Virus record (IMG/VR): IMGVR_UViG_3300014656_000090 | Span: 1 to 31,550 of that record | From: a virus | Lineage: Duplodnaviria > Caudoviricetes | Strand: one strand, 5' to 3' | Length of the DNA: 31,550 bases | Shown: in pieces, positions 1 to 30,996 of the stretch | How positions within the stretch are numbered: the stretch's first letter is position 1 | How the letters are laid out: every line of letters begins with the position of its first letter | Position numbers and translations under genes: made by a program | Notes under the pieces: model-generated | Database searches by the model: none | Told to the model about the DNA's origin: nothing | The model's input: the letters and a program-made list of their open reading frames with translations, nothing else

Positions 1-123
1 ATACTGGACGACCTGGGTGTAGAAAAAACCAGTGAGTGGGTGGCCGATAAACTGGACACCCTGGTTAACCACCGCTGGCTTGAGGGCAAATGCACGGTGT
101 TTACCACTAACCTGGCACCCAGC
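1..123. repeat. Terminal direct repeat, left copy (assembly circularisation overlap)
   Basis: Bases 1-123 are identical to 31428-31550, and the DnaC-like ORF reads in frame across the junction. This implies a circular or circularly permuted genome of 31,427 bp. Confidence 0.97.
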
Positions 124-246
124 CAACTGGCCCCACGCCTACGTAGCCGCATAAAGGAAGGCGTAACCGTTACCCTTGAGGGGCCCGACTACCGTGAGAT
201 TAAGGCCAAGATGCGGCGGGCAAAGGAGGTGGGGAGTGAAGCTTAA
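1..246 (+). CDS. DnaC/IstB-like AAA+ helicase loader, C-terminal part (gene starts at 30993 and crosses the junction; about 226 aa in total)
   Basis: Frame 1 reads ILDDLGVEKTSEWVADKLDTLVNHRWLEGKCTVFTTNL...RLRSRI...GPDYR, which contains the Walker B (ILDDLG), TTN sensor and RxxSR motifs typical of DnaC/IstB. Confidence 0.92.
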   Translation: MLDDLGVEKTSEWVADKLDTLVNHRWLEGKCTVFTTNLAPSQLAPRLRSRIKEGVTVTLEGPDYREIKAKMRRAKEVGSEA

Positions 247-478
247 GTTTTGGGTATGGCTTATGAGGTATGCGTGGAGGCGGGCCAGGGCGGCTAATGG
301 GAACCAAATACCTGACGGTGTGCCTGGCGTAAGGAGTGTAGCCGACCCATGTGATGCCTACGAACCCAGGAATAAACGGAAAGGTGGCTGGCAAGGATAT
401 TGCGGAACCGATGGCCACTACCTATGTGCAGAGTGTTACCATAAAATGGAGGTGGATAATGCCGTGCCAAGTGATTGA
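236..478 (+). CDS. Hypothetical protein, Cys/His-rich (possible zinc binding), 80 aa
   Basis: GTG at 236 follows AGGAGGT and overlaps the stop of the DnaC-like gene. Contains a C..C.TDGHYLCAEC motif. Confidence 0.7.
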   Translation: MKLKFWVWLMRYAWRRARAANGNQIPDGVPGVRSVADPCDAYEPRNKRKGGWQGYCGTDGHYLCAECYHKMEVDNAVPSD

Positions 479-722
479 ATTACCTGACGGTGGCACGATG
501 ATAGCATGTGGTCGCCGCCAACCCCGACCAAAATGCTACCTTTGTGGCAAGCCCGCACCATACCTGTGTGATTACATATTGCAGTTTGACCTTAACAACC
601 CCATATGTGACCGCCCGCTGTGTGAACAGCACAGGGTTAAGCGGTGCCTAAACATTGATTATTGCCCCGATCATGCGGCCCTGGCAGATAGTATTAACGA
701 TAATAGCGAGGCAATAGCATGA
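459..722 (+). CDS. Small zinc-finger protein, 87 aa
   Basis: ATG at 459 follows GGAGGT. Motifs CYLCG, LCD, CDRPLCEQH and DYCPDH. Confidence 0.8.
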   Translation: MPCQVIELPDGGTMIACGRRQPRPKCYLCGKPAPYLCDYILQFDLNNPICDRPLCEQHRVKRCLNIDYCPDHAALADSINDNSEAIA

Positions 723-1111
723 GGCCCGATTTAACCACCATACTTGGCCAGGGCTGGACTTATTGCCCACGGTGTGATGCCGACAGCATGGTGAAGACTG
801 AGCAGGGCTGGCATTGCCCCTGGTGCGGTATTAGCATGATGCTGGCCCAGCCGCCGCCCATAAGCGAGGTAATGCTGTGGAGTGATGCATTGGACACGGA
901 ACAGGTTATGCGTGAAATGAACCATATACAGCAAAAGACCACGGTATGGGCCACGGCACAAGCCAAATTAAGGCCGCCCAAGCGGGTGTGTGCGTTTATA
1001 AAGCTGTGCAATTTGCTGGGTTGGTTGTTTGGGTGTAGAGTCCAGATGGTATTAGATAAAACAGTAAAGGAGGGAACAAGTGAGCAAGAAAGAACAAAAG
1101 ACCACAGGTAA
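719..1111 (+). CDS. Hypothetical protein with N-terminal zinc ribbon
   Basis: ATGA overlap with the previous gene. CPRC...HCPWCG motif. Confidence 0.75.
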   Translation: MRPDLTTILGQGWTYCPRCDADSMVKTEQGWHCPWCGISMMLAQPPPISEVMLWSDALDTEQVMREMNHIQQKTTVWATAQAKLRPPKRVCAFIKLCNLLGWLFGCRVQMVLDKTVKEGTSEQERTKDHR

Positions 1112-1439
1112 GGCAATACGGGAAGCTGAAAGGAACAAGGGCCAGGTGAGATTAAAATGCGTTTACCCACCGTGCTCTAACCAGGTAGTGGTGCCCGCCC
1201 CGCCCGAGGGCATAGTGGTGGGTAGCGTAGGCCACATACAGAAGCTGGGTAAGATACCGCTATGCCCTATGCACATGGAACTGTTACAGTTTTACATGTG
1301 GTGCCAAATAAGTGTGAAAGTGGAAGCCCAACGCACCCCTGGCGGCTTGGTGCTACCTGGTCATGAGAAATATACCGCACCTATGCCCAGCAAAGAGAAC
1401 GTGCTAGCCATGCGGCGGCCCGTGGGAGGTAAGCAATGA
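1080..1439 (+). CDS. Hypothetical protein (C-x4-C...LCPMH putative zinc site)
   Basis: GTG start after a strong AAAGGAGGGAAC SD. 119 aa ORF. Confidence 0.8.
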   Translation: MSKKEQKTTGKAIREAERNKGQVRLKCVYPPCSNQVVVPAPPEGIVVGSVGHIQKLGKIPLCPMHMELLQFYMWCQISVKVEAQRTPGGLVLPGHEKYTAPMPSKENVLAMRRPVGGKQ

Positions 1440-1534
1440 TACAGATTGACCCGATTGTGTTCTGGGTGCTGGTAGCCGCTGTGTTTGTGGCTGGGGCGGG
1501 TATTGGCTGGATATTACGGCACTTTCAAATGTAG
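1436..1534 (+). CDS. Small single-pass membrane protein, 32 aa (MIQIDPIVFWVLVAAVFVAGAGIGWILRHFQM)
   Basis: Below the ORF-track cutoff. Has a GGAGGT SD, an ATGA overlap with the upstream gene and one hydrophobic helix, and fills the gap exactly. Confidence 0.7.
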   Translation: MIQIDPIVFWVLVAAVFVAGAGIGWILRHFQM

Positions 1535-1543
1535 GAGGGAACA

Positions 1544-1975
1544 ATGGATTGCAGGGTTAAAACACTATGGCACGGCCAGGTGGGCGTTAACGAGGAACGC
1601 TATGTTAAGCCCGCCCTGGCCAAACGGGAACCGTTGCACATTACGCTACTGGAAACGGGCGAGGTTATGACAGTGCCGCATGACAAGCTACTCAAAGCCC
1701 AGGTAGCCCGTAGTGAGCACCAGTTCAGGGACAAATACGGTGGGGCCGATTACTATTTGGTATATTACCAGTGGGTGCCCGAGCAAAAGCCGCTGGTGGC
1801 CGCACAGTGGGCGGCGTTGCTGGATAAGGGCTTGTTCACGGAGGTGCTTTGTTACCAAAAGCTACCAGGTAAGGGTGCGAGATATTTGCTACACCCAGCC
1901 GAAATGGAACGAATACACGACCAAGCCGCCCAACTGGCATTAAAGGAGGTGAATTATGCAAGCCGTAACTGGTAA
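1544..1975 (+). CDS. Hypothetical protein
   Basis: AGGAGGGAAC SD, 143 aa ORF in an operon-like arrangement. Confidence 0.8.
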   Translation: MDCRVKTLWHGQVGVNEERYVKPALAKREPLHITLLETGEVMTVPHDKLLKAQVARSEHQFRDKYGGADYYLVYYQWVPEQKPLVAAQWAALLDKGLFTEVLCYQKLPGKGARYLLHPAEMERIHDQAAQLALKEVNYASRNW

Positions 1976-2270
1976 GGAACTAGGGCTGGTGCTGTGCAAG
2001 ATATTTGACCAGCCCGTGGACAGGGTGCAAAGCGTAACGGTTACCGCCGAGGCAAGCGGTATGGCCAGTGTGATGATTAGCCGCCTGGTTACCGAGGAGG
2101 AGGCCGCCAGCCTGGCCACCCTGTTTGAATACTTTGGCCTGGTTAAAACCAGCGAATACCGCCAGGAACACCCGCAAGGCTTTGAGGCTGGTGCGGTGGC
2201 CACGGACGATTGGAGTAAAATAGCCCGTGAAGCCCTGGGTGGGATAGAGGAGGTGCCCGATGGTAGTTAA
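1956..2270 (+). CDS. Hypothetical protein
   Basis: AAGGAGGTG SD, and overlaps both neighbours. Confidence 0.75.
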   Translation: MQAVTGKELGLVLCKIFDQPVDRVQSVTVTAEASGMASVMISRLVTEEEAASLATLFEYFGLVKTSEYRQEHPQGFEAGAVATDDWSKIAREALGGIEEVPDGS

Positions 2271-2571
2271 CCCGTGGCCGCTGGCTTGGGCCCTGGTAGC
2301 CCTTAACCTGGGCGACTGTATAACCACCTGGATAGGCGTGCGGCGTTACCATGCCAGGGAACTTAACCCCGTGGGCCGTGGCCTGTTCCGACTTATAACC
2401 GTTCCAGGTGCAATGGTGCTGAAAATGGCCGTGGTGTGTGGCATGTGCTGGTTGCTGGCTATGGTAGGCGAGTGGCAAGTGCTGGCCGCCTTTGTGCTGG
2501 TTTATGCCGCCCTGATAGGCTGGAATACCGCCAGGCTGGGAGTGCATAAGCGGAGGGCCCAGGGTGGCTAA
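2260..2571 (+). CDS. Membrane protein, DUF5658-like
   Basis: LNLGDCITTWIG...ELNP...LK motif with about 3 hydrophobic segments. GAGGAGGT SD. Confidence 0.7.
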   Translation: MVVNPWPLAWALVALNLGDCITTWIGVRRYHARELNPVGRGLFRLITVPGAMVLKMAVVCGMCWLLAMVGEWQVLAAFVLVYAALIGWNTARLGVHKRRAQGG

Positions 2572-2977
2572 AATAGACCTGCTGGACACGCTGTTTAGCG
2601 AGTATATTCGCAAGCGTGCTATGGCCAGGGTGCACGGCTGTGAACGGTGCTTTGCTGGGAAGACTGACTACAAGCAATTACAGTGTTCGCACTTCATAGG
2701 CCGCACCACCAAAGCCGTGCGGTGGGACGAGGACAACGCCGCCGGCCTTTGCCCTGGGTGCCACATATATTTGGAACACCACCCGCTTGAGCATGTGCAA
2801 TGGTTCAAAAACTACCTGGGCGAAACAGACTTCAATTTGCTACAGGCCCGCCAGCGGGTAAGGCAAAAACCCGACAAGGCCGTGCTGGCCATATACTACA
2901 GGCGTAAGGTGCGTGAACTGGACGCTGGGCACTACGACAATGACGCACTGAGAGCCACAAACAGGCCCCTGTTTTAA
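2564..2977 (+). CDS. NinG/Rap-like recombination endonuclease
   Basis: LDTLFSEYIRKR...CERC...QCSHFIGR...VRWDEDNAAGLCPGCH matches the NinG-family pattern. Confidence 0.85.
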   Translation: MAKIDLLDTLFSEYIRKRAMARVHGCERCFAGKTDYKQLQCSHFIGRTTKAVRWDEDNAAGLCPGCHIYLEHHPLEHVQWFKNYLGETDFNLLQARQRVRQKPDKAVLAIYYRRKVRELDAGHYDNDALRATNRPLF

Positions 2978-3014
2978 CCTGGCCAATGGATTATACCTGG
3001 GAGGTTGTGCCTAG

Positions 3015-3218
3015 ATGCCGAGATTATGGGACATGCTGACCGATGAAGGTTGTATAAAGCTGATTCAATACCAGGCCGAAAACTACCCTGATGAGCCGCT
3101 TTTTGTTCGGGTGCACCAAGACCCGCCCGTGGTAATTGAAACGGTTACGGAACCCCTAAACGAGATTGACCGCATAATGAGGCAACCGCCTGGCCCTCAA
3201 TGGAGGGTTGAGCCATGA
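3015..3218 (+). CDS. Hypothetical protein
   Basis: GGGAGGT SD, 67 aa, ATGA overlap with the next gene. Confidence 0.65.
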   Translation: MPRLWDMLTDEGCIKLIQYQAENYPDEPLFVRVHQDPPVVIETVTEPLNEIDRIMRQPPGPQWRVEP

Positions 3219-3697
3219 ACCAGTGCCAGCAATGCCGCAAGGAAAGAAGGTCATGGAAGGATTGCCCCGCCGTGCCGAAGTGGTTCGGCCCCGCCGATAT
3301 TTGCTATTGCCCGCACCAGGTGGAGTGGATATTAAGTAACCTGGCCACGCTGAAAAGCGGTTACTGGCCGCCCGAGCATGTGGAAACAGGCTACTACGAT
3401 ACGGGCGGGCGTAAGGTGCGGCGTGGCGGGGCCTACTTTGAGGTGCCCATTATTGTAGCCGCTGATGTTGAAACCAGGTTGGATATGTGCGGGCCTGATG
3501 GCGTGCTGGCCAAGCAATGCCTGGGCAACGGCTGGGACGAAGGCACCCTGGCCGACATAATGAATAAGCCGTTGCACGTGATACAGGCCAAAATACGGCG
3601 GGTGGTGAACTACTGTAGCGGGGCCCGCACCAGGCAAATTACCTACTACGAGTTTACCAGGCGGCGTGGTATTGCCAGGGCCCAGCGTGGAAATTAA
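3215..3697 (+). CDS. Putative late transcription regulator (Cys-rich N-terminus, C-terminal sigma-region-4-like HTH)
   Basis: Last gene of the early operon, the slot where Q/ArpU/RinA-type regulators usually sit. GWDEGTLADIMNKPLHVIQAKIRRVVNY looks like an HTH. Function is inferred from position. Confidence 0.5.
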   Translation: MNQCQQCRKERRSWKDCPAVPKWFGPADICYCPHQVEWILSNLATLKSGYWPPEHVETGYYDTGGRKVRRGGAYFEVPIIVAADVETRLDMCGPDGVLAKQCLGNGWDEGTLADIMNKPLHVIQAKIRRVVNYCSGARTRQITYYEFTRRRGIARAQRGN

Positions 3698-3743
3698 CCG
3701 AGGCTGATGGCGTAATTTGCGGTCTGTTTTTGGGTATATCCGC

Positions 3744-3772
3744 TTGACAAATCAGCTTGACAGAACTATGAT
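3744..3772 (+). promoter_or_regulatory. Sigma70/SigA-type promoter for the HNH gene (leaderless transcript)
   Basis: TTGACA (3744-3749), 17 bp spacer, TATGAT (3767-3772). The predicted +1 falls on the ATG at 3779. Confidence 0.75.
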
Positions 3773-3778
3773 TAAACC

Positions 3779-4102
3779 ATGAATTATGAACAGCAACGAG
3801 TTAAGGATTTAAGGAACGAAGGTTTAACTTATCAACAAATAGGCGACCTACTTGGTTTTAGCCGCCAGCGTGCCCACCAGATATTGTCTGGTTATGAGTC
3901 AATGAATGTAAGAAAGGGTTTCAGGAAGGTTGTTAATTTAATAATTAAAAAACGGGACGGAGAATGTTGCCAATTCTGCATGGCCCAAGATAACCTTATT
4001 TTGCATCACAAAGATGGGGATACTCGGAACAATAATTCTTATAATCTCATAACAATGTGCCAGCGTTGCCATCGTGTTTTACACTCAGGGCTTGACAAAT
4101 AA
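3779..4102 (+). CDS. HNH endonuclease with N-terminal HTH
   Basis: GLTYQQIGDLLGFSRQRAHQI HTH, plus RDGECCQFC...HHKDGDTRNNNSYNLITMCQRCHRVLH HNH motif. AT-rich relative to its neighbours. Confidence 0.9.
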   Translation: MNYEQQRVKDLRNEGLTYQQIGDLLGFSRQRAHQILSGYESMNVRKGFRKVVNLIIKKRDGECCQFCMAQDNLILHHKDGDTRNNNSYNLITMCQRCHRVLHSGLDK

Positions 4103-4121
4103 TTTTAACCTGTTCTATACT
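4092..4121 (+). promoter_or_regulatory. Sigma70/SigA-type promoter upstream of the small RNA and the late operon
   Basis: TTGACA (4092-4097), 18 bp spacer, TATACT (4116-4121). Confidence 0.7.
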
Positions 4122-4127
4122 TGACAA

Positions 4128-4239
4128 ATAGAGGCCCTACTATGGGGCCGACAGGTTCCCTCCTTTGACAATAGGCCACCTGGTGCCGCAACCAGGTGGC
4201 CGCACGTTTATAGGGGCCCGCCCAGGCGGCGGGCTTTTT
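4128..4239 (+). ncRNA. Candidate ~110-nt small RNA with an exposed extended anti-Shine-Dalgarno sequence
   Basis: Promoter upstream, then hairpin 4133-4149, unpaired GGTTCCCTCCTTT (4154-4166), a perfect 11-bp hairpin 4174-4201 and an intrinsic terminator 4213-4239. No credible + strand ORF. Confidence 0.65.
4213..4239 (+). terminator. Rho-independent terminator ahead of the late operon
   Basis: GCCCGCC-caggc-GGCGGGC followed by TTTTT. Confidence 0.75.
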
Positions 4240-4299
4240 AGTTATGGCAATACTATACTGGCACTGTAAAGGTAGCACTGTAGTTGATGATGATGGGCG

Positions 4300-4482
4300 G
4301 TGTATATTGTGCGGGAGGATTATACACGTAACTGTTATAAAATGCGGTGCCCGCAATGTGTCTACTACTACGTTTACATTGGCCAGCCCTACGAATGGGA
4401 AGCGTGCCCGATATGCGGCTACGGCGGCCCGTTCCAAGATTTTATCCTTGAGGTAACGAATGGAAACCAAAGTATTAGTTAA
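4300..4482 (+). CDS. Small zinc-ribbon protein (start uncertain; overlaps alternative ORF 4244-4456)
   Basis: CPQC...CPICG motif. The SD is weak and the overlapping frame also has Cys motifs. Confidence 0.45.
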   Translation: MYIVREDYTRNCYKMRCPQCVYYYVYIGQPYEWEACPICGYGGPFQDFILEVTNGNQSIS

Positions 4483-5656
4483 CTGTGCCTACGACGAAAT
4501 GGTGCCGTTGCACAAGTTGGTGCCTAACCCACGGAACCCGAACACCCACCCTGAGGAACAGTTACGCTTGCTGGCTAAGATAATTGACTACCAGGGCTGG
4601 CGTAACCCTATTGTGGTAAGCACCCGTAGCGGCTTCATTGTTAAGGGCCATGCCCGCCTAACCGCCGCAGAACGGTTAGGCTTAACCGAGGTGCCCGTTG
4701 ATTACCAGGACTACGAAAGCGAAGCCCAGGAGTGGGCCGACCTACTGGCCGACAACCGCATTGCAGAACTGGCCGAAATGGATAGGCCCATGCTTAAGGA
4801 CTTGCTACAGGAGATAGATACGGGCGACTTTGACCTTGAGCTAACGGGCTTCACTGAGACAGTCCTGGAAGATATGATGACCGAGTTCCACGTGCCGAGT
4901 GAGGGCTTAACCGATGATGATGCCGTGCCCGAGGACGTGGAACCGTTATGCAAGACGGGCGACCTCTGGCAGTTGGGCAATCATCGGCTCTTATGCGGGG
5001 ATGCTACCAAGCGAGAGGATGTGGAGAGGTTGATGGGCGGAGAGAAGGCGGATATGGTGTTTACTGACCCACCTTATGGAATAAATGTCGTGGGTAGTGA
5101 TGGCAAAATTGGCGGTGGCTCAAAAGGTGTGCCCTCAAGAACGGTGCGGCAGATTAAAGGTGATGACCGTCAATTTGACCTATTGCCGCTATTGAAATTG
5201 GCCCCGATATCTGTAATTTGGGGCGGTAATTATTATGCACATTTACTGCCTTTTGGTGGTGTCTGGTTTGTGTGGGATAAAATGAGGCGTATGGAAGACC
5301 ACAGCTTTTCTGATTGTGAATTGGCTTGGACAAATATTAAAGGTGTGGTTGTTAAGCAATACGAATTATTGTGGGACGGTTATGCACGTAGTGGTAGTCG
5401 CAAGGATGAAGGTTTACATCGTTATCATCCTGCACAAAAGCCAGTTGGCTTGATAACAAATATCCTTTCTGATTATGGGAAGGCCGCCATCTCAATCCTT
5501 GACCTATTCGGTGGTTCAGGCTCAACTCTAATAGCCTGTGAGAAGCTAGGCCGCCGTTGCTTTATGATGGAAATAGACGAGCATTACTGTGATGTGATTA
5601 TCAAGCGGTGGGAGGACTTCACGGGAAAGCAAGCTGTAAAGGTAGGTAACGACTAA
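4460..5656 (+). CDS. ParB/Srx-like domain fused to an N6A/N4C DNA methyltransferase (beta class)
   Basis: N-terminal LVPNPRNPNTH...GHARL...ADNRIAE ParB-like domain. MTase motifs VFTDPPYG, HPAQKP, LDLFGGSGSTLIACE and EIDEHYCDVIIKRW. Confidence 0.93.
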   Translation: METKVLVNCAYDEMVPLHKLVPNPRNPNTHPEEQLRLLAKIIDYQGWRNPIVVSTRSGFIVKGHARLTAAERLGLTEVPVDYQDYESEAQEWADLLADNRIAELAEMDRPMLKDLLQEIDTGDFDLELTGFTETVLEDMMTEFHVPSEGLTDDDAVPEDVEPLCKTGDLWQLGNHRLLCGDATKREDVERLMGGEKADMVFTDPPYGINVVGSDGKIGGGSKGVPSRTVRQIKGDDRQFDLLPLLKLAPISVIWGGNYYAHLLPFGGVWFVWDKMRRMEDHSFSDCELAWTNIKGVVVKQYELLWDGYARSGSRKDEGLHRYHPAQKPVGLITNILSDYGKAAISILDLFGGSGSTLIACEKLGRRCFMMEIDEHYCDVIIKRWEDFTGKQAVKVGND

Positions 5657-6204
5657 TGGCAGAACGTAATAAAGGTGGAACGCCGAAAGGCTTAACGCAC
5701 AGGCGGCGGGTGCTGGTGGGCCAGCTATGGTTGCGTGGTAACAGTGAACGGGCCATAGCCGAAATGGTGCGGGCGGAGGCCGTCCACCCTGGTAGCCCGT
5801 TGCGTGGTTGCGAGAAGACCACCCACATAACCGTGCACCTGGACGTGGAGGCCTGTAGGGAGGAGTGGGTTAAGCGTGATGGCTGCAAGCTGGACGAGAA
5901 GCGAACCGAACAGGTAAGCCGCTTGCTGGACATTGTGCACCAGGCGTGGGTTGATTTTACCAACAAGGCCGAGTATTTACGGCCACAGTATTTACGTATT
6001 GCTCTTGATGCCGAGGAAAAGCTGGCCAAGTTGATGGGCACACTGGCCCCTGTCCAGCTTACGGGTGGTGAAGGTGAACCGTTGATGCCGCCAACGGTGA
6101 TATTCCAGTGGCCCGATGGCACAGAGTTTAAGCCGCCACGTAATGGCCATGAACCGATAGAGGTTAAAGCCAGTGGTAATGGCGACGAGCCCGACAGAGG
6201 TTAA
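5656..6204 (+). CDS. Terminase small subunit
   Basis: Immediately upstream of and overlapping TerL. N-terminal HTH-like segment, helical middle and a QLTGGEGEPL tail motif typical of TerS. Confidence 0.75.
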   Translation: MAERNKGGTPKGLTHRRRVLVGQLWLRGNSERAIAEMVRAEAVHPGSPLRGCEKTTHITVHLDVEACREEWVKRDGCKLDEKRTEQVSRLLDIVHQAWVDFTNKAEYLRPQYLRIALDAEEKLAKLMGTLAPVQLTGGEGEPLMPPTVIFQWPDGTEFKPPRNGHEPIEVKASGNGDEPDRG

Positions 6205-7435
6205 ACTAACCCCATTTGGTGGCCAAGCTAACCTACTGGCCGATGAACGGGCCCGCACCCTGGCGGCAATAGCGGGCACGGGCGGCGGTAAAACACAGCT
6301 TGGCTACTGGTGGCTTTACCTACGAATGAAAGACGACCCTGGGTATGCGTGGGGCCTGGCAGAACCGACATACCCGATGCTTGAGAAAATTATCATACAC
6401 AGCCCCGACCCCAGGCGGCCCGACCTGATAACCTGGTTCCGCAATATGGGCTGGCACCCACGTTACGAGGCTGTGGCCAAGATACTTAACACGGACTACG
6501 GCAAAGTTTACCTGGGTAGTGCCGACAACCCCAATAGCATGCAGGGTGCCGCCGTAAGAGGTTACTGGCTGGACGAGGGCGGCATGATGAGCCTCATAGC
6601 TTACCAGACCGCCATGCAGAGGGTGAGCCTTTACGACGGCCAGGTGCTAATAACCACTACCCCTTATAATAGGGGCTGGCTTAAGACCGAGGTAAACGAC
6701 AAGGCCGAGGGCAATTACATACACGTGGAACGGTGGGCGAGTATTGCTAACCCAGCGTTCCCGAAGCATGTATTTGAGGAAATGAGAAGCGGGCCCAACG
6801 CCATGCAACCGCACCGCTTCCGCATGGTGTATATGGCCGAGTTTGAACGGCCCGTGGGCATGATATACGCCAGCTTTGACAGTGAGAAGTGCGTTATACC
6901 GCCCTTCAAGATACCGAAAAGCTGGCCCAGGTATGTTGGCCAGGACTACGGGCCCGTGCACACCGCTGTTATTTGGTATGCCAAGAACCCCGTAAAATAC
7001 CAGGGCTGGCCAGCGGGCACCATGTTTGCTTACCGTGAATACCTGGAAGGCAACAAGAGTATTAAGCAACATTCCACCGACCTTAAGGGATTAAGCAAAG
7101 GCGAACCAATACAGATGAAGGCCGCCAGCCCGCTGGGTAGTGAACGCCAGTGGCGGCGGGAGTTTAGCGAGCAAGGCTGGCACCTACAGGAGTGCAAGGT
7201 TACCGATGTTGAGGTGGGCATTGACAGGGTGTGGGCCATGCACCAGGGCAACAAGCTGGTTTACTTTAACACGCTACACCACACCATAAGTCAAAAAGAG
7301 GACTACCGCCGTAAGCTGGACGAGAGCCAGCAACCGACGGAGGCCATAGAAAACAAGGAACAGTTCCACTTTATGGACGCAGAACGGTATATTGTAGCCC
7401 ACATGCAAGGGCGGCGGGCGATATTTGAGGCGTAA
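6173..7435 (+). CDS. Terminase large subunit
   Basis: Walker A AGTGGGKT, Walker B YWLDE, TTTP coupling motif, and RNase H-like GQDYG...HFMDAERY. The start could be ATG 6179. Confidence 0.95.
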   Translation: MVMATSPTEVKLTPFGGQANLLADERARTLAAIAGTGGGKTQLGYWWLYLRMKDDPGYAWGLAEPTYPMLEKIIIHSPDPRRPDLITWFRNMGWHPRYEAVAKILNTDYGKVYLGSADNPNSMQGAAVRGYWLDEGGMMSLIAYQTAMQRVSLYDGQVLITTTPYNRGWLKTEVNDKAEGNYIHVERWASIANPAFPKHVFEEMRSGPNAMQPHRFRMVYMAEFERPVGMIYASFDSEKCVIPPFKIPKSWPRYVGQDYGPVHTAVIWYAKNPVKYQGWPAGTMFAYREYLEGNKSIKQHSTDLKGLSKGEPIQMKAASPLGSERQWRREFSEQGWHLQECKVTDVEVGIDRVWAMHQGNKLVYFNTLHHTISQKEDYRRKLDESQQPTEAIENKEQFHFMDAERYIVAHMQGRRAIFEA

Positions 7436-7438
7436 ATT

Positions 7439-9343
7439 ATGGCACCTAATTTAACCAAATGGTTCAAAGGGCTTAACTTTAAGCTGGGTGGGGCGGCCAT
7501 ATCCGTTATGGATATACCGCCAAGCTGGAATTACCAGCAATACCTTAAAGCCTACGGTGATGTTGGGTGGTTGTTTGGGGCCAATAGCCTTATAAGCGAG
7601 GCTGTGGCCGATGTGAAATGGCATCTTTACGAGAAGGACGGCTCACAACTTGGCGACGAGGTGGACAACCACCCGTTGCTGGATATGTGGGCCTATGTTA
7701 ACCCGTTCCAAACCAAGTATCAGTTTATACAGCTAACGCAAATGTATTTGGGCCTGGTGGGTGAGGCATTTTGGGTGCTGAACTTTAACAAGCTGGGTGT
7801 GCCAGCCGAAATGTGGCTGGCCCCGCCGCAATACATGTATATCATACCCAGCCAGGAAACCTACATTAGCCATTACGAATACAGGCGTAATTTCGGGCGG
7901 TTGCGGTTAGAGGTTCCCGAAGTGATACATATAATGAGCCCTAACCCAGCTAACAGTTACCGTGGCCTGGGGCCCGCCCAAAGTATTAGCCTTGACCTGG
8001 ACAGTGAACGCTACGCCGCCCGCTACCAGCAACGGTTGTTCTACAATGATGCTACGCCAGGCATGATTATTGAATACCCCGATATACCCGAGAAGTCCGA
8101 GAGGGACAAGATACGCATGGAGTGGGACGAGATACACCGAGGCTGGCGTAACGCCCGCAAAACGGGCTTCCTGTGGGGCGGTGCCAAAGCCAACACCCTA
8201 GCCCTAACCAATAGGGACATGGAGTTTTGGCGGCTACGCAAAATTAACCGTGAAACTATTATAGGGGCCTACAGGCTACCCACCAGCATGATGGGCCTTG
8301 AGGGCCCAGGTAGCCGTGCCAGGGTGGAAGCTGACGAATACATATTTGCCAAATACACGGTTAAGCCCGCCCTAACCCGTATTAAGGAAGCGATTAACGA
8401 ACAGCTTGTGCCGCTGTTTGACGCCGGCTGGCAATTTAGCTTTGAAAACCCCGTGCCCGAAAACAGGGTGGAGATTGTTGACGAGGTTAGCAAGCTGGTG
8501 CCTGTGGGTATAATAACCAGGGAGGAGGCACGGGTTAAGCTGGGTTACGATGCCCAGGCGGCAAAAGGTGAAACCTACTTAACACCCATGACGCTTATGC
8601 CCGAAAAGGTGAAGCGTCATGAAAGCCTGGTTAACAGGCAGTTTAGCGAGGAACAAAAAGAGGTGCGGTGGCGGCTATATGCCAACAAGGCCGACCAGGA
8701 CGAGTTACAGTGCAAACGGCTGTTTAAGCGGCTGTGGTTTGAGCAGATGGACGAGGTTGCGGAAGCCTGGAAGCTGGTGCCACAACTTGACCAGGCTTTC
8801 AACGAGGAAGGTGCGAAGGTTACCTGGGACACCCACTTTAACCCTTTTATTGCCCACGTATTTGAGGAAGCCTACGACCTGGCTACTACAGGCGGGGCCT
8901 TAAGCCCCGTGCATACGGGCAAACAGGAGGGTGTGCTTGACCCGCAAGCCCTTGAGTGGATAGCATACCGTTCCTTAAACCTGGCCAAAATGGTTAACGG
9001 CACAACTTACGAGGAATTACGGGCGGCCCTTGCGATAGGCTTTGAGGAGGGCGAGAGCACCCAGCAACTAACCCGACGCATACGTGAGTATTACCAGGGC
9101 GGTTACGAAAGGCGGGCGACACTCGTAGCCCGCACGGAGGTTATTGCCGCCAGCAACGAGGGTGCTTTGCGGGGCTACGAAAGCGAAGGTTTGAACAAGG
9201 CCGAGTTCTATGCCGCCCTTGATGAACGCACGTGTGATGAGTGTATGGCTTACCACGGCGATGTGAGGCCCATAGACGAAGCACGTGGACTAATACCAGT
9301 GCACCCGCAATGCCGATGCACCTGGGTGCCCGTGATGGAATAA
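7439..9343 (+). CDS. HK97-family portal protein fused to a Mu gpF-like minor head domain
   Basis: Portal motifs (HPLLD, VGEAFW, EVIHI, GLGP, FYNDATPG, ITREEARVKLG) followed by MuF motifs RATLVARTEVIAASN...DERTCDEC...IPVHPQCRC. Confidence 0.92.
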   Translation: MAPNLTKWFKGLNFKLGGAAISVMDIPPSWNYQQYLKAYGDVGWLFGANSLISEAVADVKWHLYEKDGSQLGDEVDNHPLLDMWAYVNPFQTKYQFIQLTQMYLGLVGEAFWVLNFNKLGVPAEMWLAPPQYMYIIPSQETYISHYEYRRNFGRLRLEVPEVIHIMSPNPANSYRGLGPAQSISLDLDSERYAARYQQRLFYNDATPGMIIEYPDIPEKSERDKIRMEWDEIHRGWRNARKTGFLWGGAKANTLALTNRDMEFWRLRKINRETIIGAYRLPTSMMGLEGPGSRARVEADEYIFAKYTVKPALTRIKEAINEQLVPLFDAGWQFSFENPVPENRVEIVDEVSKLVPVGIITREEARVKLGYDAQAAKGETYLTPMTLMPEKVKRHESLVNRQFSEEQKEVRWRLYANKADQDELQCKRLFKRLWFEQMDEVAEAWKLVPQLDQAFNEEGAKVTWDTHFNPFIAHVFEEAYDLATTGGALSPVHTGKQEGVLDPQALEWIAYRSLNLAKMVNGTTYEELRAALAIGFEEGESTQQLTRRIREYYQGGYERRATLVARTEVIAASNEGALRGYESEGLNKAEFYAALDERTCDECMAYHGDVRPIDEARGLIPVHPQCRCTWVPVME

Positions 9344-9353
9344 GGAGGCTATT

Positions 9354-10973
9354 ATGCCAAACGAGACAGTTACGCAAGAGAAGACCATTTACAAAACTTT
9401 CCGTGCCGAGATAAAGGAGATTGATGCCCAGGCGGGCATAATCAACATGGTAATACCCATGAGCACGGGTGCGGAGGACAGGGACGAGGAGGTTATTGAG
9501 CCCGCCGCCTTTAAGAAGTGGCTCAAGGAGTTTATGAAGCGGCCTATACTACTGTCCAGCCACATGTATGGCGACCTCCGCAAACAGATAGGCGAGTTTA
9601 AGGGCCTTAAGGTAACCGACGAGGGGCTTATGGCCCAGGGGCTTGAATACTACATTGGCCGTGGCAACGACGAGGCCGATTGGGGCTTCTACCTGGCCAG
9701 CCGTGGTATGGCGGCTTTCAGTGTGGGCTTTATACCCAAGAAGTGGGAACCCATTGACGAGGAAAAAGACGAGGGCTTTTTCGGCGGCAACCGCCGCTAC
9801 ACCGAGGTGGAACTGTTAGAGGTTAGCCAGGTGGTGGTGCCCAGCAACCGTGAGGCGATACAGGGTATGCGTGGCAAGGCCCAGGGCGACCCTGTGGCCG
9901 TGGCTTTGCTGGACGAGGTGGACAAGGGCCTGGCCGATGGCACGGTTACCAAGCCCGAGGAAACGGAGGACTACATACGCATACCCGTTAAAGAGGAGGA
10001 GGGCAAGCACGACGACCACCGCATACGAACTATAACAGTTAGCGACGAGAAGGGTATTAAGGCCCTTTATTGCGGCGAGTGCAAGGTCATTGTTACTTAT
10101 CTGTTCAGTAAGGACGATGAATACGGCTGGACAATGGCCAGTGCCCAGGAGTGGGTTGATGACCACGCCAAAAGCTACGAACTGGTGGACGTTACCGCCG
10201 AGGGCGATACCGAACCACAGTTTGCGATACATGCCCTACTCCCTGGGCTGGCTGAAACTAAAGGGGCTATACCCTATAAAAAGACACCGCTAGACGAAAC
10301 AGGCGAGTGGGATGCTGGCAAAGAGATAAGGGCCGCCGAGGTTGACGACCTTAAAATAATGTGCACCTGGGTAGGCGATGACCCCGAGGTAAAGGGTAGT
10401 TATAAACTACCGCACCATAGGGCTGGCGGCGACCATACTTGCGTGTGGCGGGCCGTGGCGGCCTGTGCGGCTGTCTTAATGGGTGCCCGTGGCGGGGCCG
10501 ATATACCCGAGGGCGACGTTGCGGCGGTTAAGGCCCATATAGCCAAGCACTATGCTGACTTTGACAAGGGCGACCCGCCCTGGGCAAAAGCGGTTACACA
10601 GGAACAGTTACAGGACGAGATTGACTACGTGCATAAGGGCATTATGCACGTGGGCATGAATGAGGACACCGAGATTGTGGCCCTTGATATGGCCAGCGAA
10701 ATTATTATGCGGGCAACGGGTTCCGACATACCCGATGATATATTAACCAAAGTGGGTGCCGTGCTTAATGCCAAAAACAAGGACAGGCTGAACCAAATTA
10801 AGCGGTTGGCCCAGGAAGTTCTGGACAGTGCGGGCACCGACGAGGAGGACGGCAAAAAGGTAGAGCCAACACGGCCTAACCCCGCCGAACAGGCAAGACA
10901 GCGGGCTCAGGACGTGGCAGAGGTAGCCAGCCTGGTTGTTGCCCAACTCAAAGGCAAAAGAATACCGAAATAA
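9354..10973 (+). CDS. HK97-type prohead protease with long C-terminal extension
   Basis: DRDEEVI, PILLSSH, AFSVGF and ELLEVSQVVVPSNREA motifs, followed by about 350 aa of extra domains. Confidence 0.9.
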   Translation: MPNETVTQEKTIYKTFRAEIKEIDAQAGIINMVIPMSTGAEDRDEEVIEPAAFKKWLKEFMKRPILLSSHMYGDLRKQIGEFKGLKVTDEGLMAQGLEYYIGRGNDEADWGFYLASRGMAAFSVGFIPKKWEPIDEEKDEGFFGGNRRYTEVELLEVSQVVVPSNREAIQGMRGKAQGDPVAVALLDEVDKGLADGTVTKPEETEDYIRIPVKEEEGKHDDHRIRTITVSDEKGIKALYCGECKVIVTYLFSKDDEYGWTMASAQEWVDDHAKSYELVDVTAEGDTEPQFAIHALLPGLAETKGAIPYKKTPLDETGEWDAGKEIRAAEVDDLKIMCTWVGDDPEVKGSYKLPHHRAGGDHTCVWRAVAACAAVLMGARGGADIPEGDVAAVKAHIAKHYADFDKGDPPWAKAVTQEQLQDEIDYVHKGIMHVGMNEDTEIVALDMASEIIMRATGSDIPDDILTKVGAVLNAKNKDRLNQIKRLAQEVLDSAGTDEEDGKKVEPTRPNPAEQARQRAQDVAEVASLVVAQLKGKRIPK

Positions 10974-10987
10974 ACGGAGGAAAAACG

Positions 10988-12244
10988 ATGCCATTAACAA
11001 AAGAGGAAAAACAGGAAATAGCGGAAACCGTGGCCGTGGCCCTTAAGGAAAGTGGGGCCCTGGACGCTACCCGCAAGTTTACCCCTGGTGACCCACCCGA
11101 GCACAGTGGGAAGGGCGACCCCGAAGTTGAGATTATTTCAAGCCCCGAGGACAGGATAATTCTTGACCCAAAGGGCACGTTTGAAGACTTCGGTGAGTTT
11201 GCCGCCGCTGTAGCGGGTAAAGGTGCCAAGTGGTATGGAACCCAACACCTGGATAAGCTAAAGGCTTATAACAATGCGGTAATCAAGACCACTGGCCACA
11301 TGGAGGAAGGCGACATGGCCCAGGGCGGTTACCTGGTGCCCGTGGAGTTTCGGGCCGAACTGCTACAAACCAAGCTGGAAATGACCGTCGTCGGCAACCG
11401 TGCAACCAGGATACCTATGCAGACGAACCGCATTACCATACCCGCTATCGTTGATAGCAACCACAGCACCAACTACTTTGGCGGGATTATACCTTACCGC
11501 ACGGGTGAAGCGGCACAGAAAACCGCCAGCAAACCAGCCCTGGGTCAAGTGGCCTTAACTCTCCACAAGCTAACGGGCCTGGTTTACATGACCGATGAAC
11601 TGCTGGAAGACAGCCCTATCTCCGTTGTGCCCGTCCTCAACACCCTTTTTGCCACGGCAATAGCGTTTGAGGAGGACGACGATTACCTGATGGGCACAGG
11701 TGTGGGCCGCCCGCTGGGTGCGTTCAACGCTGGTAACCCCAGCCTGATAGCCCAGGCGATTGAGGTGGGCCAGCCCGCCGCCACCATCGTGTGGCAGAAC
11801 ATAGCCAAAATGTGGAGTCGTTTACACCCGTCCAGCATGCGTAACGCCATTTGGGTAGCCAACAATGAGTGCTTCCCTCAACTGGCAACCATGTCTATGG
11901 CCGTGGGCACTGGCGGCGTTCCCGTATGGCTACCAGCCAATGGTGCGGCAAATACCCCATTCGGCACATTGATGGGCCGACCCCTTATGCTGTGCGAGAA
12001 GATGCAAGCCCTGGGGACACAGGGCGACATCGGCCTGGCAGACTTTAGCCAATACCTGGTAGCCGAGAAGGCGGGTGGAGGGCTAAAGACGGCCACCAGC
12101 ATACACCTCCGCTTTGACTACGACGAGACGTGCTTCCGCTGGGTGCTACGCTACGACGGGCAACCGTGGTGGTTAAGCGACCTGACCCCGAAACGGGGCA
12201 CGGCAACCTTGAGCCCGTTTGTAGTCCTGGCCGTCCGAGCATAA
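10988..12244 (+). CDS. Major capsid protein, HK97 fold
   Basis: GGYLVPVEF, ELLEDS, GTGVGRPLG, TLMGRP, DFSQY and FDYDETCFRWVLRYDGQP motifs, directly after the protease. Confidence 0.95.
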   Translation: MPLTKEEKQEIAETVAVALKESGALDATRKFTPGDPPEHSGKGDPEVEIISSPEDRIILDPKGTFEDFGEFAAAVAGKGAKWYGTQHLDKLKAYNNAVIKTTGHMEEGDMAQGGYLVPVEFRAELLQTKLEMTVVGNRATRIPMQTNRITIPAIVDSNHSTNYFGGIIPYRTGEAAQKTASKPALGQVALTLHKLTGLVYMTDELLEDSPISVVPVLNTLFATAIAFEEDDDYLMGTGVGRPLGAFNAGNPSLIAQAIEVGQPAATIVWQNIAKMWSRLHPSSMRNAIWVANNECFPQLATMSMAVGTGGVPVWLPANGAANTPFGTLMGRPLMLCEKMQALGTQGDIGLADFSQYLVAEKAGGGLKTATSIHLRFDYDETCFRWVLRYDGQPWWLSDLTPKRGTATLSPFVVLAVRA

Positions 12245-12295
12245 GCCGACCTGGGGCCCTACGTGCCCACAAAATAAAATAAGGGAGGCAGTAAA

Positions 12296-12790
12296 GTGCC
12301 ACACGCAAGATTTTCACAGACCCACGCCATCATCTACGAAACCATCATTGTGGCTGATAACTACAATGCTGGTATGAGTATGGACAGCATTAACATGGCC
12401 AAGTATGACCATGTAGCCCTAATCCTGGTGGGCGATGTTGCCTGTGCAGGTGCTGGCATTGTAACCATCATGGCGGGTGCCACCAACGGGGTTGAAACGG
12501 CGGCCATCACGTTCAGTTACCGATATACCCTCACTGACGTGGCTTCCACCACCTCTGACGTGCTGAGTGCCCCTGTGGCGGCGGCCACGTGCACCCTGAC
12601 CGAGGCATACATACGTAGCGGTATGTATGTTTTTGAATGGGACGCACAGGACATGCTGGTTGCTGGGGTTCACTACCAGTGGGCCACACCAGTGCTTGAT
12701 GCCAGCGGCACGGCGGGCATAGTAACGGCTATCGCCATCGGGCATTGGCCACGCTATGCACAGAACGTAATGCCGTCCGCCATCGTGTAG
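12296..12790 (+). CDS. Putative head decoration/cement protein
   Basis: GTG after a GGGAGG SD, follows the capsid gene, beta-rich (DSINMAKYDHV...PRY). Confidence 0.7.
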   Translation: MPHARFSQTHAIIYETIIVADNYNAGMSMDSINMAKYDHVALILVGDVACAGAGIVTIMAGATNGVETAAITFSYRYTLTDVASTTSDVLSAPVAAATCTLTEAYIRSGMYVFEWDAQDMLVAGVHYQWATPVLDASGTAGIVTAIAIGHWPRYAQNVMPSAIV

Positions 12791-12797
12791 GTGAGGC

Positions 12798-12950
12798 ATG
12801 GTTAAGGAAGGTAGCGACAAAAAGAAAACCAAGCGGCGGGTTAGGGTGGTGGATAGTGATGCTGTCCACAGGGCCCTGGCCCGCCCAGGGCGGGACAAGA
12901 TGGTTAAGGGCCCGCCCACTTTCAAATCGCCTGACCGTAGCGGAACGTAA
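12798..12950 (+). CDS. Small basic head-region protein, 50 aa
   Basis: Not in the ORF track. ATG follows GGTGAGG. Reads MVKEGSDKKKTKRR...ALARPGRDKMVKGPPTFK, a basic P..DKMVK-type peptide of the kind seen after capsid genes. Confidence 0.55.
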   Translation: MVKEGSDKKKTKRRVRVVDSDAVHRALARPGRDKMVKGPPTFKSPDRSGT

Positions 12951-12994
12951 GACCGCACGGAGTATTTACTAAATAAAGCAAGGAGGCAAAAACA

Positions 12995-14164: not shown

Positions 14165-14166
14165 GT

Positions 14167-24256: not shown

Positions 24257-24285
24257 TTGACAAATGGCAAATAAAGGTATAGAGT
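24257..24285 (+). promoter_or_regulatory. Main early promoter
   Basis: TTGACA (24257-24262), 17 bp spacer, TAGAGT (24280-24285). AT-rich upstream with the inverted repeat TTTTGC-N7-GCAAAA. Confidence 0.75.
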
Positions 24286-24648
24286 TAGAACGGTTACGGA
24301 ACAGGAGGGAACAAAAAGAAACGAAGCCGCACAGACGGGTAGCCACCACAAAGGAAGGCTACCAAGTACCTAACCCCACCGTTGTAGATAACAGGCAATG
24401 CCCAGGGTAAACACCAAGCCGCATGACCAAGCTGGACGGCACGGCAAGCGGCCCCAGGAACCAGGGGAAGGCACTACGGGGTATTAAGCGGGGCACAGAA
24501 TGGGTGCACTGTGAGCAGAGTTTATTAGCCGATTACCCGCCCGCAACTGTTAACACGCTATAAACCTTTACGGGGCCAGCGTGGGTGAAATGCTACGGTT
24601 ACGGGCGGACATGGGCCAATAAGCCCAAATATAGTAAGGAGGGAACCG

Positions 24649-25002
24649 ATGGCCGCACAACAAGCCGAAAGGCATGAGTTAGGCCGCAACGGCGAGGACG
24701 TTGCCAAGAATATGCTGGGTGGCCGCACCACCAAGCACAAGGCACCATTTGACCTGGTGGACTTTAGCGAGGGCTACGCTTACGAAGTTAAGACCATGAC
24801 GGGCTGGGGCAAGGATAACAAGATACACATTACCGATGCCAGCATGGCCCGCAAGCTGGCCTGGGCCAAAAGATACGAGCTTAAAATGGTGCTGGTGGCC
24901 GTAGTGATTTACGGCCCCGACCACGTGGAAGTTTACCAAAGCGAACTGAAACAGAGCATGAGGGTTAGGCAAATGGCCCTTGTGGAAAGGAGGGAAGCGT
25001 GA
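24649..25002 (+). CDS. PD-(D/E)XK-family (YraN-like) nuclease-fold protein
   Basis: ELGRNGEDVA...PFDLV...YEVKT motif. Strong SD. Confidence 0.7.
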   Translation: MAAQQAERHELGRNGEDVAKNMLGGRTTKHKAPFDLVDFSEGYAYEVKTMTGWGKDNKIHITDASMARKLAWAKRYELKMVLVAVVIYGPDHVEVYQSELKQSMRVRQMALVERREA

Positions 25003-25217: not shown

Positions 25218-25300
25218 CCCGCCAACCACCAGCCCGTAACTGTTATGGTTGCGGGCTGACGTGGGCTGGTTAGCCCAAATGATATTTAAGGAGGGAGTTT

Positions 25301-27899: not shown

Positions 27900-28136
27900 A
27901 TGGAACTACTAGACCGCATTAAGACCGCCCAGGAAGTGCATGGTTGGAGTGATGGCGAGTTTGCCCAGCAATTAGGCTTAAGCCAAAGTGTGTTAAGCCG
28001 TATTAAGCGGGGACTACGCCCACTTGATAACGTGCGGTTCTTACGTGCGGTGGCACAGGCAATGCCTGAACTACGCTGGCACATTGCAGAATACGTAATA
28101 GGAGGGAACGGAGAACATGCCGAGATACGGCACTGA
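27900..28136 (+). CDS. XRE/Cro-like HTH transcription regulator, 78 aa
   Basis: GWSDGEFAQQLGLSQSVLSRIKRGLR HTH. AAGGAGGTG SD before ATG 27900. Confidence 0.88.
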   Translation: MELLDRIKTAQEVHGWSDGEFAQQLGLSQSVLSRIKRGLRPLDNVRFLRAVAQAMPELRWHIAEYVIGGNGEHAEIRH

Positions 28137-28614
28137 TTACAGCAAAACAGCCATTAACCTTACTAACCCCGCCGAGGTGCGGAACCTATTGCTGGAATAC
28201 AACAAGGCCCGCAAGATGGAGACCATACACCAAGCCGCCCTGGAAGCCACCGCCGAGTTTAAGGTGCTGGCCCAGGCCCAGGCCGATGTGGGCAAGCTGT
28301 ATGACAAGCTACAGGAAGCCATTGACCTGGCGGGAAGCTACCAGGATATTGCCGAGGGCCTTTACGGCCTTAAGCAAAGCCGCACCAGCGTAACCTTTGA
28401 CCCCAAAGCGGTGCGTAAGGTTATACCACAGTTTGCCGAGGCCGTGATAATGGAAACTGTGGACGGCACGAAGGTCAACGGCCTTAAGAAAGGCGGCCTC
28501 ATTACAGAGGCACAGGTAGCCAAGATAGAGGTGCGGGCGGCCTTAAGCCCCGCCTACATTATTGGCATAGCGGAACAGCCCGTAAAGGGCAAGGAGGGAA
28601 CCAATGCCGATTAA
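28117..28614 (+). CDS. Hypothetical coiled-coil protein of the recombination module
   Basis: 165-aa ORF with AGGAGGGAAC SD. Helical N-terminal half. Confidence 0.75.
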   Translation: MPRYGTDYSKTAINLTNPAEVRNLLLEYNKARKMETIHQAALEATAEFKVLAQAQADVGKLYDKLQEAIDLAGSYQDIAEGLYGLKQSRTSVTFDPKAVRKVIPQFAEAVIMETVDGTKVNGLKKGGLITEAQVAKIEVRAALSPAYIIGIAEQPVKGKEGTNAD

Positions 28615-30184: not shown

Positions 30185-30255
30185 GCCCTGTGGGCGGTGG
30201 TGCTACGGTGCCACCGCCCGACCATTTGGTAACTGTTATAAGAAAGGAGGGCAAC

Positions 30256-30996
30256 TTGGCCAGGCCGCAAATAGAAAATGGCCATACCGATATAGCCAAC
30301 GAACTGACCGAAGCATTTGCCAGGTGCTATTTAACGGCCAGTGAGAGCCGTGTGCTATGGGCAATAATACGCAAGACCTATGGCTGGCATAAAAAGTATG
30401 ACCGCATTTCCTTTACCCAATTTGAACAGCTAACTGGCATGAACCGCCGCCATGTTGCCGATGCCCTCAAGAGTTTAATGGGTCGTTCTATTGTTACCCG
30501 TAGAGGCAACAATTACAAGCTGGAATATGGCGTGCAAAAGGACTATGAGAAGTGGGTATTGTTACCCGTAGGGGTAATGAATAGGCTTAAAAACTTGTTA
30601 CCCGTAGAGGCAACAAACACAATCGTTACCCAACAAGGCAATACCCCGTTACCCGTAGAGGCAACAAAATCGTTACCCGTAGAGGCAAACACAAAAGAAA
30701 AGAAAACAACTATACAAAAGAAAATAGTAGAAGGTCGCAAAATAGCGGGTTACATGTTTGAATTGCCCTGGCTGAATAAACTGGTAGCTGAATATGCCGA
30801 CCTTAACTTTGAAGCCGAGGTTACTAAGTTTGAGGATTACCAGGCTGATACAAGGCGTAAATTAAAAAGCCCGAAGCTGGCTTTACGCAACTGGCTTAAC
30901 ATAGCCCGTGAACGGGCGGCCAAAGCACCCGCCGCAAGTAGAGGTGCCAGGCCGCTACCCGATACCAAAACATTAAAGGAGGAATGGGAACAATGA
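30256..30996 (+). CDS. Replication initiator, lambda O-like N-terminal domain
   Basis: TTG after AAAGGAGGG. PQIENGHTDIANEL...VLWAIIRKTYGWHKKYDRISFTQF...GVQKDYEKW, with internal iterons, and followed by the DnaC-like gene. Confidence 0.9.
   Translation: MARPQIENGHTDIANELTEAFARCYLTASESRVLWAIIRKTYGWHKKYDRISFTQFEQLTGMNRRHVADALKSLMGRSIVTRRGNNYKLEYGVQKDYEKWVLLPVGVMNRLKNLLPVEATNTIVTQQGNTPLPVEATKSLPVEANTKEKKTTIQKKIVEGRKIAGYMFELPWLNKLVAEYADLNFEAEVTKFEDYQADTRRKLKSPKLALRNWLNIARERAAKAPAASRGARPLPDTKTLKEEWEQ
30493..30727. promoter_or_regulatory. Replication origin: iterons plus A-rich tract within the initiator gene
   Basis: GTTACCCGTAGAGGCAA at 30493, 30597, 30648 and 30672, with variants at 30561 and 30625, followed by an A-rich stretch at about 30690-30727, as in lambdoid origins. 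Confidence 0.85.

Follow-up and report, generated by a model that had tools for sequence, protein, structure and literature searches.

Can an RNA made just ahead of a phage's late genes address the early genes of the same genome as a class, through a motif shared by their ribosome-binding sites (RBSs)? The question is raised by positions 4092 to 4240 of the IMG/VR virus record IMGVR_UViG_3300014656_000090 (Duplodnaviria; Caudoviricetes), whose 31,550 nucleotides (nt) were analysed at full length and are here called the window. The window is the whole virus record, carries a 123-nt terminal repeat, and was found in groundwater metagenome runs. Every annotated gene lies on the + strand: a late arm begins with a ParB-methylase gene at 4460, continues with terminase, portal, capsid and tail genes and ends at about 24100, and an early arm runs from a promoter at 24257 across the join of the record to 4102. 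At the boundary stands a predicted non-coding RNA with a ten-nucleotide segment, the seed GGUUCCCUCC, and an initial reading of the letters alone (the sequence-only reading) had proposed that this RNA represses translation of many early genes through a complementary, extended Shine-Dalgarno (SD) sequence, the tag GGAGGGAAC. The RNA belongs to a previously undescribed family, which stands as a real and conserved predicted phage RNA element, and the complementarity of this element to the early-gene tags is, judged from the comparison of sequences, selected. Repression of early genes in trans is the likeliest function, with a little better than an even chance of being correct.

A conserved predicted RNA element in front of the late genes

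The near-consensus promoter TTGACA-18-TATACT with which the element begins is present as first read (Table 1). The intrinsic terminator is seen in the fold, as a hairpin followed by five T residues; a consensus terminator scanner run on the window did not list it. Positions 4128-4242 fold with a z score of -4.2, none of 200 shuffled sequences being equally stable. Rfam gave no match at 4092-4239, and three chance matches elsewhere in the window.

To find relatives, searches were anchored on the terminase and on the 160-aa gene upstream, and 81 loci were screened for the seed, many of them too short to reach its position. An architecture-pattern scan gave 14 loci, comprising two known members, three new members and nine that were dropped because the architecture was lacking; when viral contigs were scanned for an exact 15-mer, 32 loci came up, with a long alignment only for the phage's own copy. 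The resulting family has 16 loci including the window, 13 of them non-redundant, with a median identity of 50%. Each member has a TTGACA promoter, hairpin P1, the seed, hairpin P3 and a 3' end of hairpin plus T residues, and all 13 non-redundant members fold with z scores between -3.5 and -8.1. The unit always lies behind its promoter between the regulator gene at the Q position and the late genes; the genes downstream differ among members, and the RNA therefore survives exchange of the packaging module. The seed is its only near-invariant part: eight of the ten positions are conserved in 13/13 members and the other two in 12/13 and 11/13, the flanking columns being conserved mostly in 5-8/13.

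In most relatives the seed forms the loop UUCCCU, closed by GG:CC, of a hairpin P2. Because the MAFFT alignment misplaced the helices, the P2 stem was judged by an anchored permutation test and not by a covariance model; native flanks gave -8.1 kcal/mol against -3.7 for flanks swapped between members (12 members, permutation p 5e-5); the stems co-vary around an unchanging seed. The stem is weak in the window, L080 and L158. The sequence-only reading had placed the seed unpaired between two hairpins, which describes the family better than the window: the hexaloop, UUCCCU or UGCCCU, is fully open in the predicted structure of 11/16 loci, but in the window copy CCUCC at 4159-4163 is unpaired with a probability of 0.32-0.39, because it can pair with 4212-4215. 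In one RNA run of assembled contigs (X15), record 13, aligned to window positions 4153-4184, represents a relative in which the RNA has an intact P2 stem, which suggests that the window copy has lost part of its own. The leader of L099 (8238-8448) has a structured insert of about 100 nt between P1 and P2, its seed hairpin and terminator being unchanged. Downstream of the regulator gene, L121 and L128 show the same multi-hairpin leader layout with P2 loops that have no seed.

A tag confined to early messages

All seven exact matches to the complement of the seed that had first been listed were recovered on the + strand of the early arm, with the coordinates and lengths given for them. The core AGGAGGGAA occurs seven times on the + strand, always in the early arm and never between 4400 and 24101, which upholds the earlier impression by eye that the late arm lacks the tag. 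On the - strand it occurs once, at 4156, and the only antisense copy of the tag in the whole genome is at 4154-4163. That nearly all matches are start-site SDs is true of six of the seven; no start codon follows the match at 24303-24312, which the transcript from the early promoter at 24257 reaches after 12 nt. A minus-strand reading, in which the seed would be the SD of a leftward gene, was rejected: starts are found in 3/13 members, and the open reading frames (ORFs), of 6-44 codons, are unconserved.

Early SDs pair better with 16S rRNA overall than late ones (median -12.2 vs -10.2), and the test of the tag was therefore conditioned on GGAGG, each GGAGG followed by an ORF being checked for GAAC next to it. 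In seven seed-positive records GAAC follows at 18/89 early and 0/51 late sites (p 1.4e-4), against 1/69 and 0/59 in nine seed-negative records (early compared with seed-positive early, p 1.4e-4). The window itself has 5/22 early and 0/18 late, and the relative G001 has 7/22 and 0/15. Only in genomes with the seed is GAAC the top 4-mer after GGAGG, with 18 occurrences, the runner-up having 4. When the search was made blind to the seed, the commonest 9-mer around GGAGG start sites was AGGAGGGAA in the window (six) and GGAGGGAAC in G001 (seven), and in both genomes the best-scoring mirror of that 9-mer on the + strand was the seed. Ranked by pairing energy including the cost of opening, the top 6 of 53 sites in the window and the top 8 of 59 in G001 are early, although this ranking is crude, using a single seed window, and scores the exact-tag sites at 1544 and 24999 poorly.

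For most tagged genes, the GGAGG-led genes of the other records include no ortholog, and where orthologs do exist the tag comes and goes between them; the SD of the Gp3-like gene is tagged in only one of 34 readable other loci (of 36), that of G011. An exact tag stands at or just before the replication initiator in G001, G011 and L089. The expectation of conservation in relatives has thus held up, the RNA unit being kept in the family and the tag lost where the seed is absent. In G001 (32770) and G011 (21032) the tag precedes an ORF of 31-35 codons that overlaps the replication-initiator start, an arrangement that suggests translational coupling.

The tag without a start codon belongs to an early leader of which about 250 nt (24292-24540) are conserved with G001 with no shared reading frame; the global fold of this part is no better than that of shuffles (z -0.42). 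In G001, too, a non-coding leader carries the tag, around +10 to +14 of the main early transcript. The tag is predicted to be unpaired with a probability of 0.75-1.0 in the window and is mostly paired in the G001 fold. G011 and L185 carry a wobble form of the tag at the first SD. Directly before tagged SDs, at 24540-24635 and 25220-25290, stands a repeat made of two hairpins, CAGCCCG...CGGGCTGAC and then a small one, of which G001 has one copy; it is possibly a processing site or a recombination cassette.

Other loops and other tags

The sequence-only reading had expected the anti-SD extension to co-vary with the early SD extension, and in two relatives loop and tag do appear to switch together, a pattern that is suggestive only. 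G002 (73% terminase identity, shared head module) has CUCACCUUUCAUCUCCUUU at the RNA locus, with the loop CUCACCU, and no GGAGGGAAC; AGGTGA is found there at 9/23 early and 1/30 late starts, compared with 2/23 in the window and 1/26 in G001. G007 has the loop CACCCCCUU, and A[AG]GGGGG[TA] at 4/7 leftward early starts and 0/13 late. The G007 loop pairs best with early sites of its own genome and of G006 (-14.6, -13.6) and poorly with those of the window (-7.5), and the window loop has the reverse preference. Against this must be set that both motifs were picked after inspection of the data; that AGGTGA is also a plain 16S extension, and for the G002 loop its own early sites are no better pairing partners than others; that G007 alone gives p 0.11; and that the loops of G008 and G009 show little or no early/late preference, G010 and L104 being likewise patternless.

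A variant seed, GGUGCCCUCC, in L088 and L153 predicts tags of the form GGAGGGCAC. It could not be tied to a changed tag, these records having less than 2.6 kb upstream, and joining L153 to L185 as one phage failed, since the two do not overlap. In L217, an A+T-rich element, GGAGGAATT stands at 10/27 SDs; no antisense copy of it was seen in the 20 kb covered.

The late promoter and its surroundings

Promoter-like sites are no commoner in positions 1-8000 than in shuffled sequence (seven, shuffle mean 7.0), and the TTGACA of the late promoter is invariant in 12/12 aligned loci. A second TTGACA, at 4121-4126, overlaps the end of the -10 element, and 6/17 late promoters have one directly behind the -10. 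In phage lambda, the second TTGACA-type element behind the -10 of pR' has a role in the action of Q. The pR' sequence is printed as TAAATTtgactcA, with a second TTGAC hexamer behind the -10, in PMC4604602. As in the lambda pR'-tR' arrangement, a strong sigma70-type promoter and an intrinsic terminator stand directly before the late operon.

Table 1. Positions of the RNA element, its candidate target sites and associated features in the window
Feature	Position	Strand	Remarks
Tagged SD of gene 1080-1439	1066..1077	+	12-nt match; three orthologs elsewhere untagged
Tagged SD of gene 1544-1975	1533..1542	+	Exact match
160-aa conserved gene, Q position	3215..3697	+	Putative late regulator; C-terminal sigma-4-like helix-turn-helix (HTH), predicted
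Late promoter TTGACA-18-TATACT	4092..4127 (hexamers 4092-4121)	+	11/12 consensus
Predicted non-coding RNA, about 113 nt	4128..4240	+	Start inferred from promoter spacing
Hairpin P1	4133..4149	+	From fold; relatives have a differently sequenced hairpin at the same place
Seed GGUUCCCUCC	4154..4163	+	Lower P2 stem eroded in window copy
Hairpin P3, 11 bp	4174..4201	+	From fold; found in 13/13 members
Intrinsic-terminator-like hairpin (4216-4234) plus T5	4216..4239	+	From fold
Main early promoter TTGACA-17-TAGAGT	24257..24285	+	Same place in G001
Conserved non-coding early leader	24292..24635	+	Tag 24303-24312 near 5' end
Tagged SD of gene 24649-25002	24636..24647	+	12-nt match
Tagged SD of gene 24999-25217	24986..24996	+	11-nt match; G001 ortholog tagged too
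SD of gene 25301-25486	25288..25299	+	Pairs with G-U wobbles
Tagged SD of gene 28117-28614	28100..28109	+	Exact match
Tagged SD of Gp3-like gene 28604-29881 (PF18897)	28591..28602	+	Exact match
Replication-initiator SD	30243..30255	+	Weak match, one mismatch; no favourable net energy
DnaC-like gene SD	30975..30991	+	Weak bulged match; exact tag in L089

Wherever a family locus extends far enough, the 160-aa gene is found upstream of the RNA. Its product has no PHROG, Pfam or relevant NCBIfam match; its neighbours in the Atlas (0.90-0.92) belong to sigma70_r4 and Phage_antitermQ clusters, with no significant hidden Markov model or fold match, and Foldseek gave weak HTH/sigma-4 matches only (E at least 0.24). 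Between this gene and the RNA (3744-4102) lies a 107-aa HTH-HNH gene behind a second near-consensus promoter; the end of the HTH-HNH gene runs into the -35 of the late promoter. No gene intervenes there in G001, and the inserts of relatives vary.

Further away, the region 27852-28136 holds a 78-aa HTH gene with its own promoter and a very strong SD without the tag, and in G001 (29868) and L089 (2008) a promoter with a strong untagged SD stands at a similar place. A low-complexity, GCCGCC-rich and alanine-rich repeat at 27300-27570 forms the end of the gene at 26990. Compared with cultured phages, the terminase reaches a best identity of 21-27% among the matches listed.

The SAS motif of cluster K mycobacteriophages

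A comparable tag has been described in cluster K mycobacteriophages. PMC3203893 reports their SAS (Start-Associated Sequence) motif as a lengthened SD of the non-structural arm that, in four K1 phages, has a single copy on the opposite strand; an RNA or a protein is considered there as its reader. SAS is also treated in PMC12699233 and PMC11373665; its role was still called unknown in 2024 and unverified in 2025. In our analysis the right half of Adephagia has 16 forward copies and one reverse copy, the latter (record positions 58682-58694) forming the predicted open loop of a long hairpin in the gap between genes 92 and 93, where late transcription is reported to start (PMC11373665). In the late-leader region at L171 30660-30720 (Adephagia 58659-58719) antisense SAS forms a predicted open loop of 10 nt. 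The SAS-bearing gene 39 is listed with an Hfq-fold match (PMC11373665).

Among the leader regions examined, the exact antisense loop is present in three, those of Adephagia, LastHope and Mdavu, the last two keeping it with changes in the stem; a loop with two mismatches is found in Amgine, Shandong1 and Ximenita. It is absent from the leader regions of Yuna, LeMond, Pixie, TM4 and Kratio, in which SAS is retained. Of the records without the exact loop, the 5/5 checked whole have 15-19 SAS cores and no exact antisense copy. Since SAS is kept where the loop is lost, SAS must have some reason besides the loop. Co-variation of loop and tag in cluster K was also considered and rejected, K6-type loops having no matching forward tag in 3/3 records.

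Proposed role and alternatives

It is slightly better than an even bet that a terminated leader of the lambda pR' type has been recruited as an antisense RNA to repress multiple early genes. The layout of the late leader, the second TTGACA and the precedent of the lambdoid RNA StxS, considered below, together led us to infer a constitutive, terminated leader that accumulates. The late promoter would fire without an activator and its transcript would end at 4239, until the Q-position protein permitted read-through, as at lambda pR'. The stable leader RNA would accumulate as time passed and genome copies multiplied, and through the conserved UUCCCU loop it would pair in trans with the tag and block ribosome-binding sites. 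Contact between loop and SD would nucleate pairing, and opening of the closing GG:CC pairs would allow a duplex of 10-12 bp reaching from the SD into the spacer. Expression of the first early operon and of the genes for recombination and replication would be damped, and late genes, whose SDs have no tag extension, would escape. Through the tag close to the start of the early leader, the RNA might act on the whole early transcript, or the leader might titrate the RNA. Of the originally proposed repressor with its shared SD barcode, the early-only tag, the conservation and the linkage of seed to tag have thus gained support, and repression itself is a prediction.

Several observations count against this repressor. 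A discrete RNA is not seen in the contigs of X15 (one run, with DNA carry-over possible): these thinly cover 26 of 30 bins of positions 1-16000, the contig over the locus spans 4047-4252, beyond both promoter and terminator, and a second contig, a relative's RNA copy, likewise begins upstream of the promoter. The seed of the window copy is partly paired. Only about a quarter of early starts are tagged, and the counts of tagged sites are not independent, coming from related genomes and including some orthologs, while most seed-negative records are more distant. Elsewhere among the seed-positive records, exact early tags number 4/20 in L089, 2/9 in G011, which has no RNA locus and is so classed only through terminase genes near-identical to those of L093, and, where only the distal early region enters the count, 0/7 in L085 (two by wobble), 0/3 in L153 and 0/6 in L099, which has the seed yet no tagged start in 8 kb upstream. 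Antiterminator function of 3215-3697 is a weak lead only, and in cluster K the tag persists without the loop.

The same complementarity could instead serve RNA-based immunity or a carrier state, in which a quiescent genome makes the RNA constantly and so holds the early operon off, much as P4 CI does; this is unlikely, though the foremost of the alternatives. It would suit a near-consensus promoter with no obvious need for an activator, and tags both near the beginning of the early leader and at replication genes; P4 CI itself acts on a leader, by termination (PMC4825925). Yet neither the window nor G001 has a T-run terminator in the early leader, and the RNA is located at the late promoter, outside the leader it would target. 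The absence of a recognisable CI or integrase, on which the idea had leaned, is half confirmed: no integrase match was found among 53 window proteins, but 'no recognisable CI' was too strong, because the 78-aa HTH gene at 27900 matches repressor families. There is no sign of lysogeny, and two queries of the genome contig collection found no prophage relative. Immunity has no direct support and is a less likely function than an early-to-late antisense repressor; that one or the other form of trans repression is right is fairly probable.

If a protein read the tag, the loop being secondary or unrelated, there would be a precedent in the T4 nuclease RegB, which cuts an extended SD consensus on early mRNAs only (PMC3014915), a repressor like RegA being the other candidate. 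Cluster K records with many SAS copies and no exact antisense copy fit such a reader, as does a tag that is not an SD, but it would leave unexplained both why the exact complement of the tag is the RNA's only invariant part and why the tag is lost in seedless relatives. No candidate protein turned up, though no search was aimed at one, and we rate a protein reader slightly below immunity. A shade more doubtful is the reverse direction of action, with early RNA, chiefly the early leader, binding the loop so as to tune termination or stability of the late leader, or to sponge the RNA. The leader site ranks high in net pairing energy (third of 53 in the window, first of 59 in G001) and is conserved although it is no start site; against that, P3 separates the seed from the terminator, so that no route to antitermination is evident, and most tags lie exactly at the SDs of unrelated genes. 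Least probable of all is a purely cis-acting late leader, an antitermination or pause element whose complementarity arose by accident from SD composition and shared descent. Seedless leaders with the same hairpin layout do exist (L121, L128, L104, L193-L197), early SDs are stronger overall, and deletion of StxS had no effect on phage yield (PMC7547250), but the enrichment persists after conditioning on GGAGG, the tags sit on non-orthologous genes, and the dominance of GAAC after GGAGG is confined to genomes with the seed.

Comparison with known systems

In phages, proteins are known that shut off early genes, and the known antisense RNAs act on one or two targets nearby. Titles and the openings of abstracts, with few subscription papers among them, yielded no stand-alone late-leader RNA matched to an early RBS tag. 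The proposed repressor, if real, would be a stand-alone RNA that addresses a class of genes through a barcode the phage has written into its own RBSs, a compact design.

P1/P7 c4 RNA pairs with the phage's own early or replication transcript. The sequence-only reading had taken this RNA and P4 CI as its models, and pairing with the same phage's early or replication transcript is indeed a likeness. P4 CI arises by processing of the very transcript that it controls, and its pairing with seqA/seqC brings about termination (PMC4825925). The RNA described here, by contrast, is not encoded in or processed from the regulated transcript; it is driven by a promoter of its own, which around the circle stands about 11 kb away from the early promoter, and it faces 7-10 dispersed sites. 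That choice of models overlooked the late-promoter leader in its lambda pR'-like layout, because of which StxS and 6S are the closer architectural precedents. StxS and other lambdoid pR'-tR' leaders are likewise short, terminated late-promoter transcripts behind a Q-position gene, co-opted for base pairing, as is predicted here. StxS is bound by Hfq, is processed, and targets stx1 and host rpoS (PMC7547250); here the predicted targets are, in contrast, the phage's own early genes, reached through a shared tag.

In the manner of recognition, the nearest counterparts are the UCCC-loop small RNAs RsaE, RNAIII and FsrA (PMC4152353), in which a C-rich hairpin loop recognises the RBSs of several mRNAs. 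The phage RNA has such a conserved single-stranded loop complementary to SDs in its predicted structure, though the window copy is partly paired, and no Rfam match links it to these RNAs by homology. They differ in being host chromosomal RNAs with host targets, and no self-encoded extended tag separates classes of genes. With T4 RegB and RegA the likeness lies in early-gene shut-off through an extended signal in the SD region, which for RegB is GGAGRAYARAA (PMC3014915), and the difference in the reader, a protein in T4 and a candidate RNA here. Cluster K SAS shares an extended SD tag in the non-structural arm and a single opposite-strand copy, but its sequence is different, the phages are unrelated, and the tag described here does not fit the 13-bp SAS consensus. 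The repressor, if real, would also bear on these motifs. It is tempting, if still rather short of probable, to suggest that unrelated phages have repeatedly evolved RNA-addressed regulons, in which an anti-RBS loop in the late leader and a matching barcode at early RBSs change together, as an RNA counterpart of T4 RegB and RegA, and that the antisense SAS loop of Adephagia-like phages is a culturable case, which would answer in part what reads SAS.
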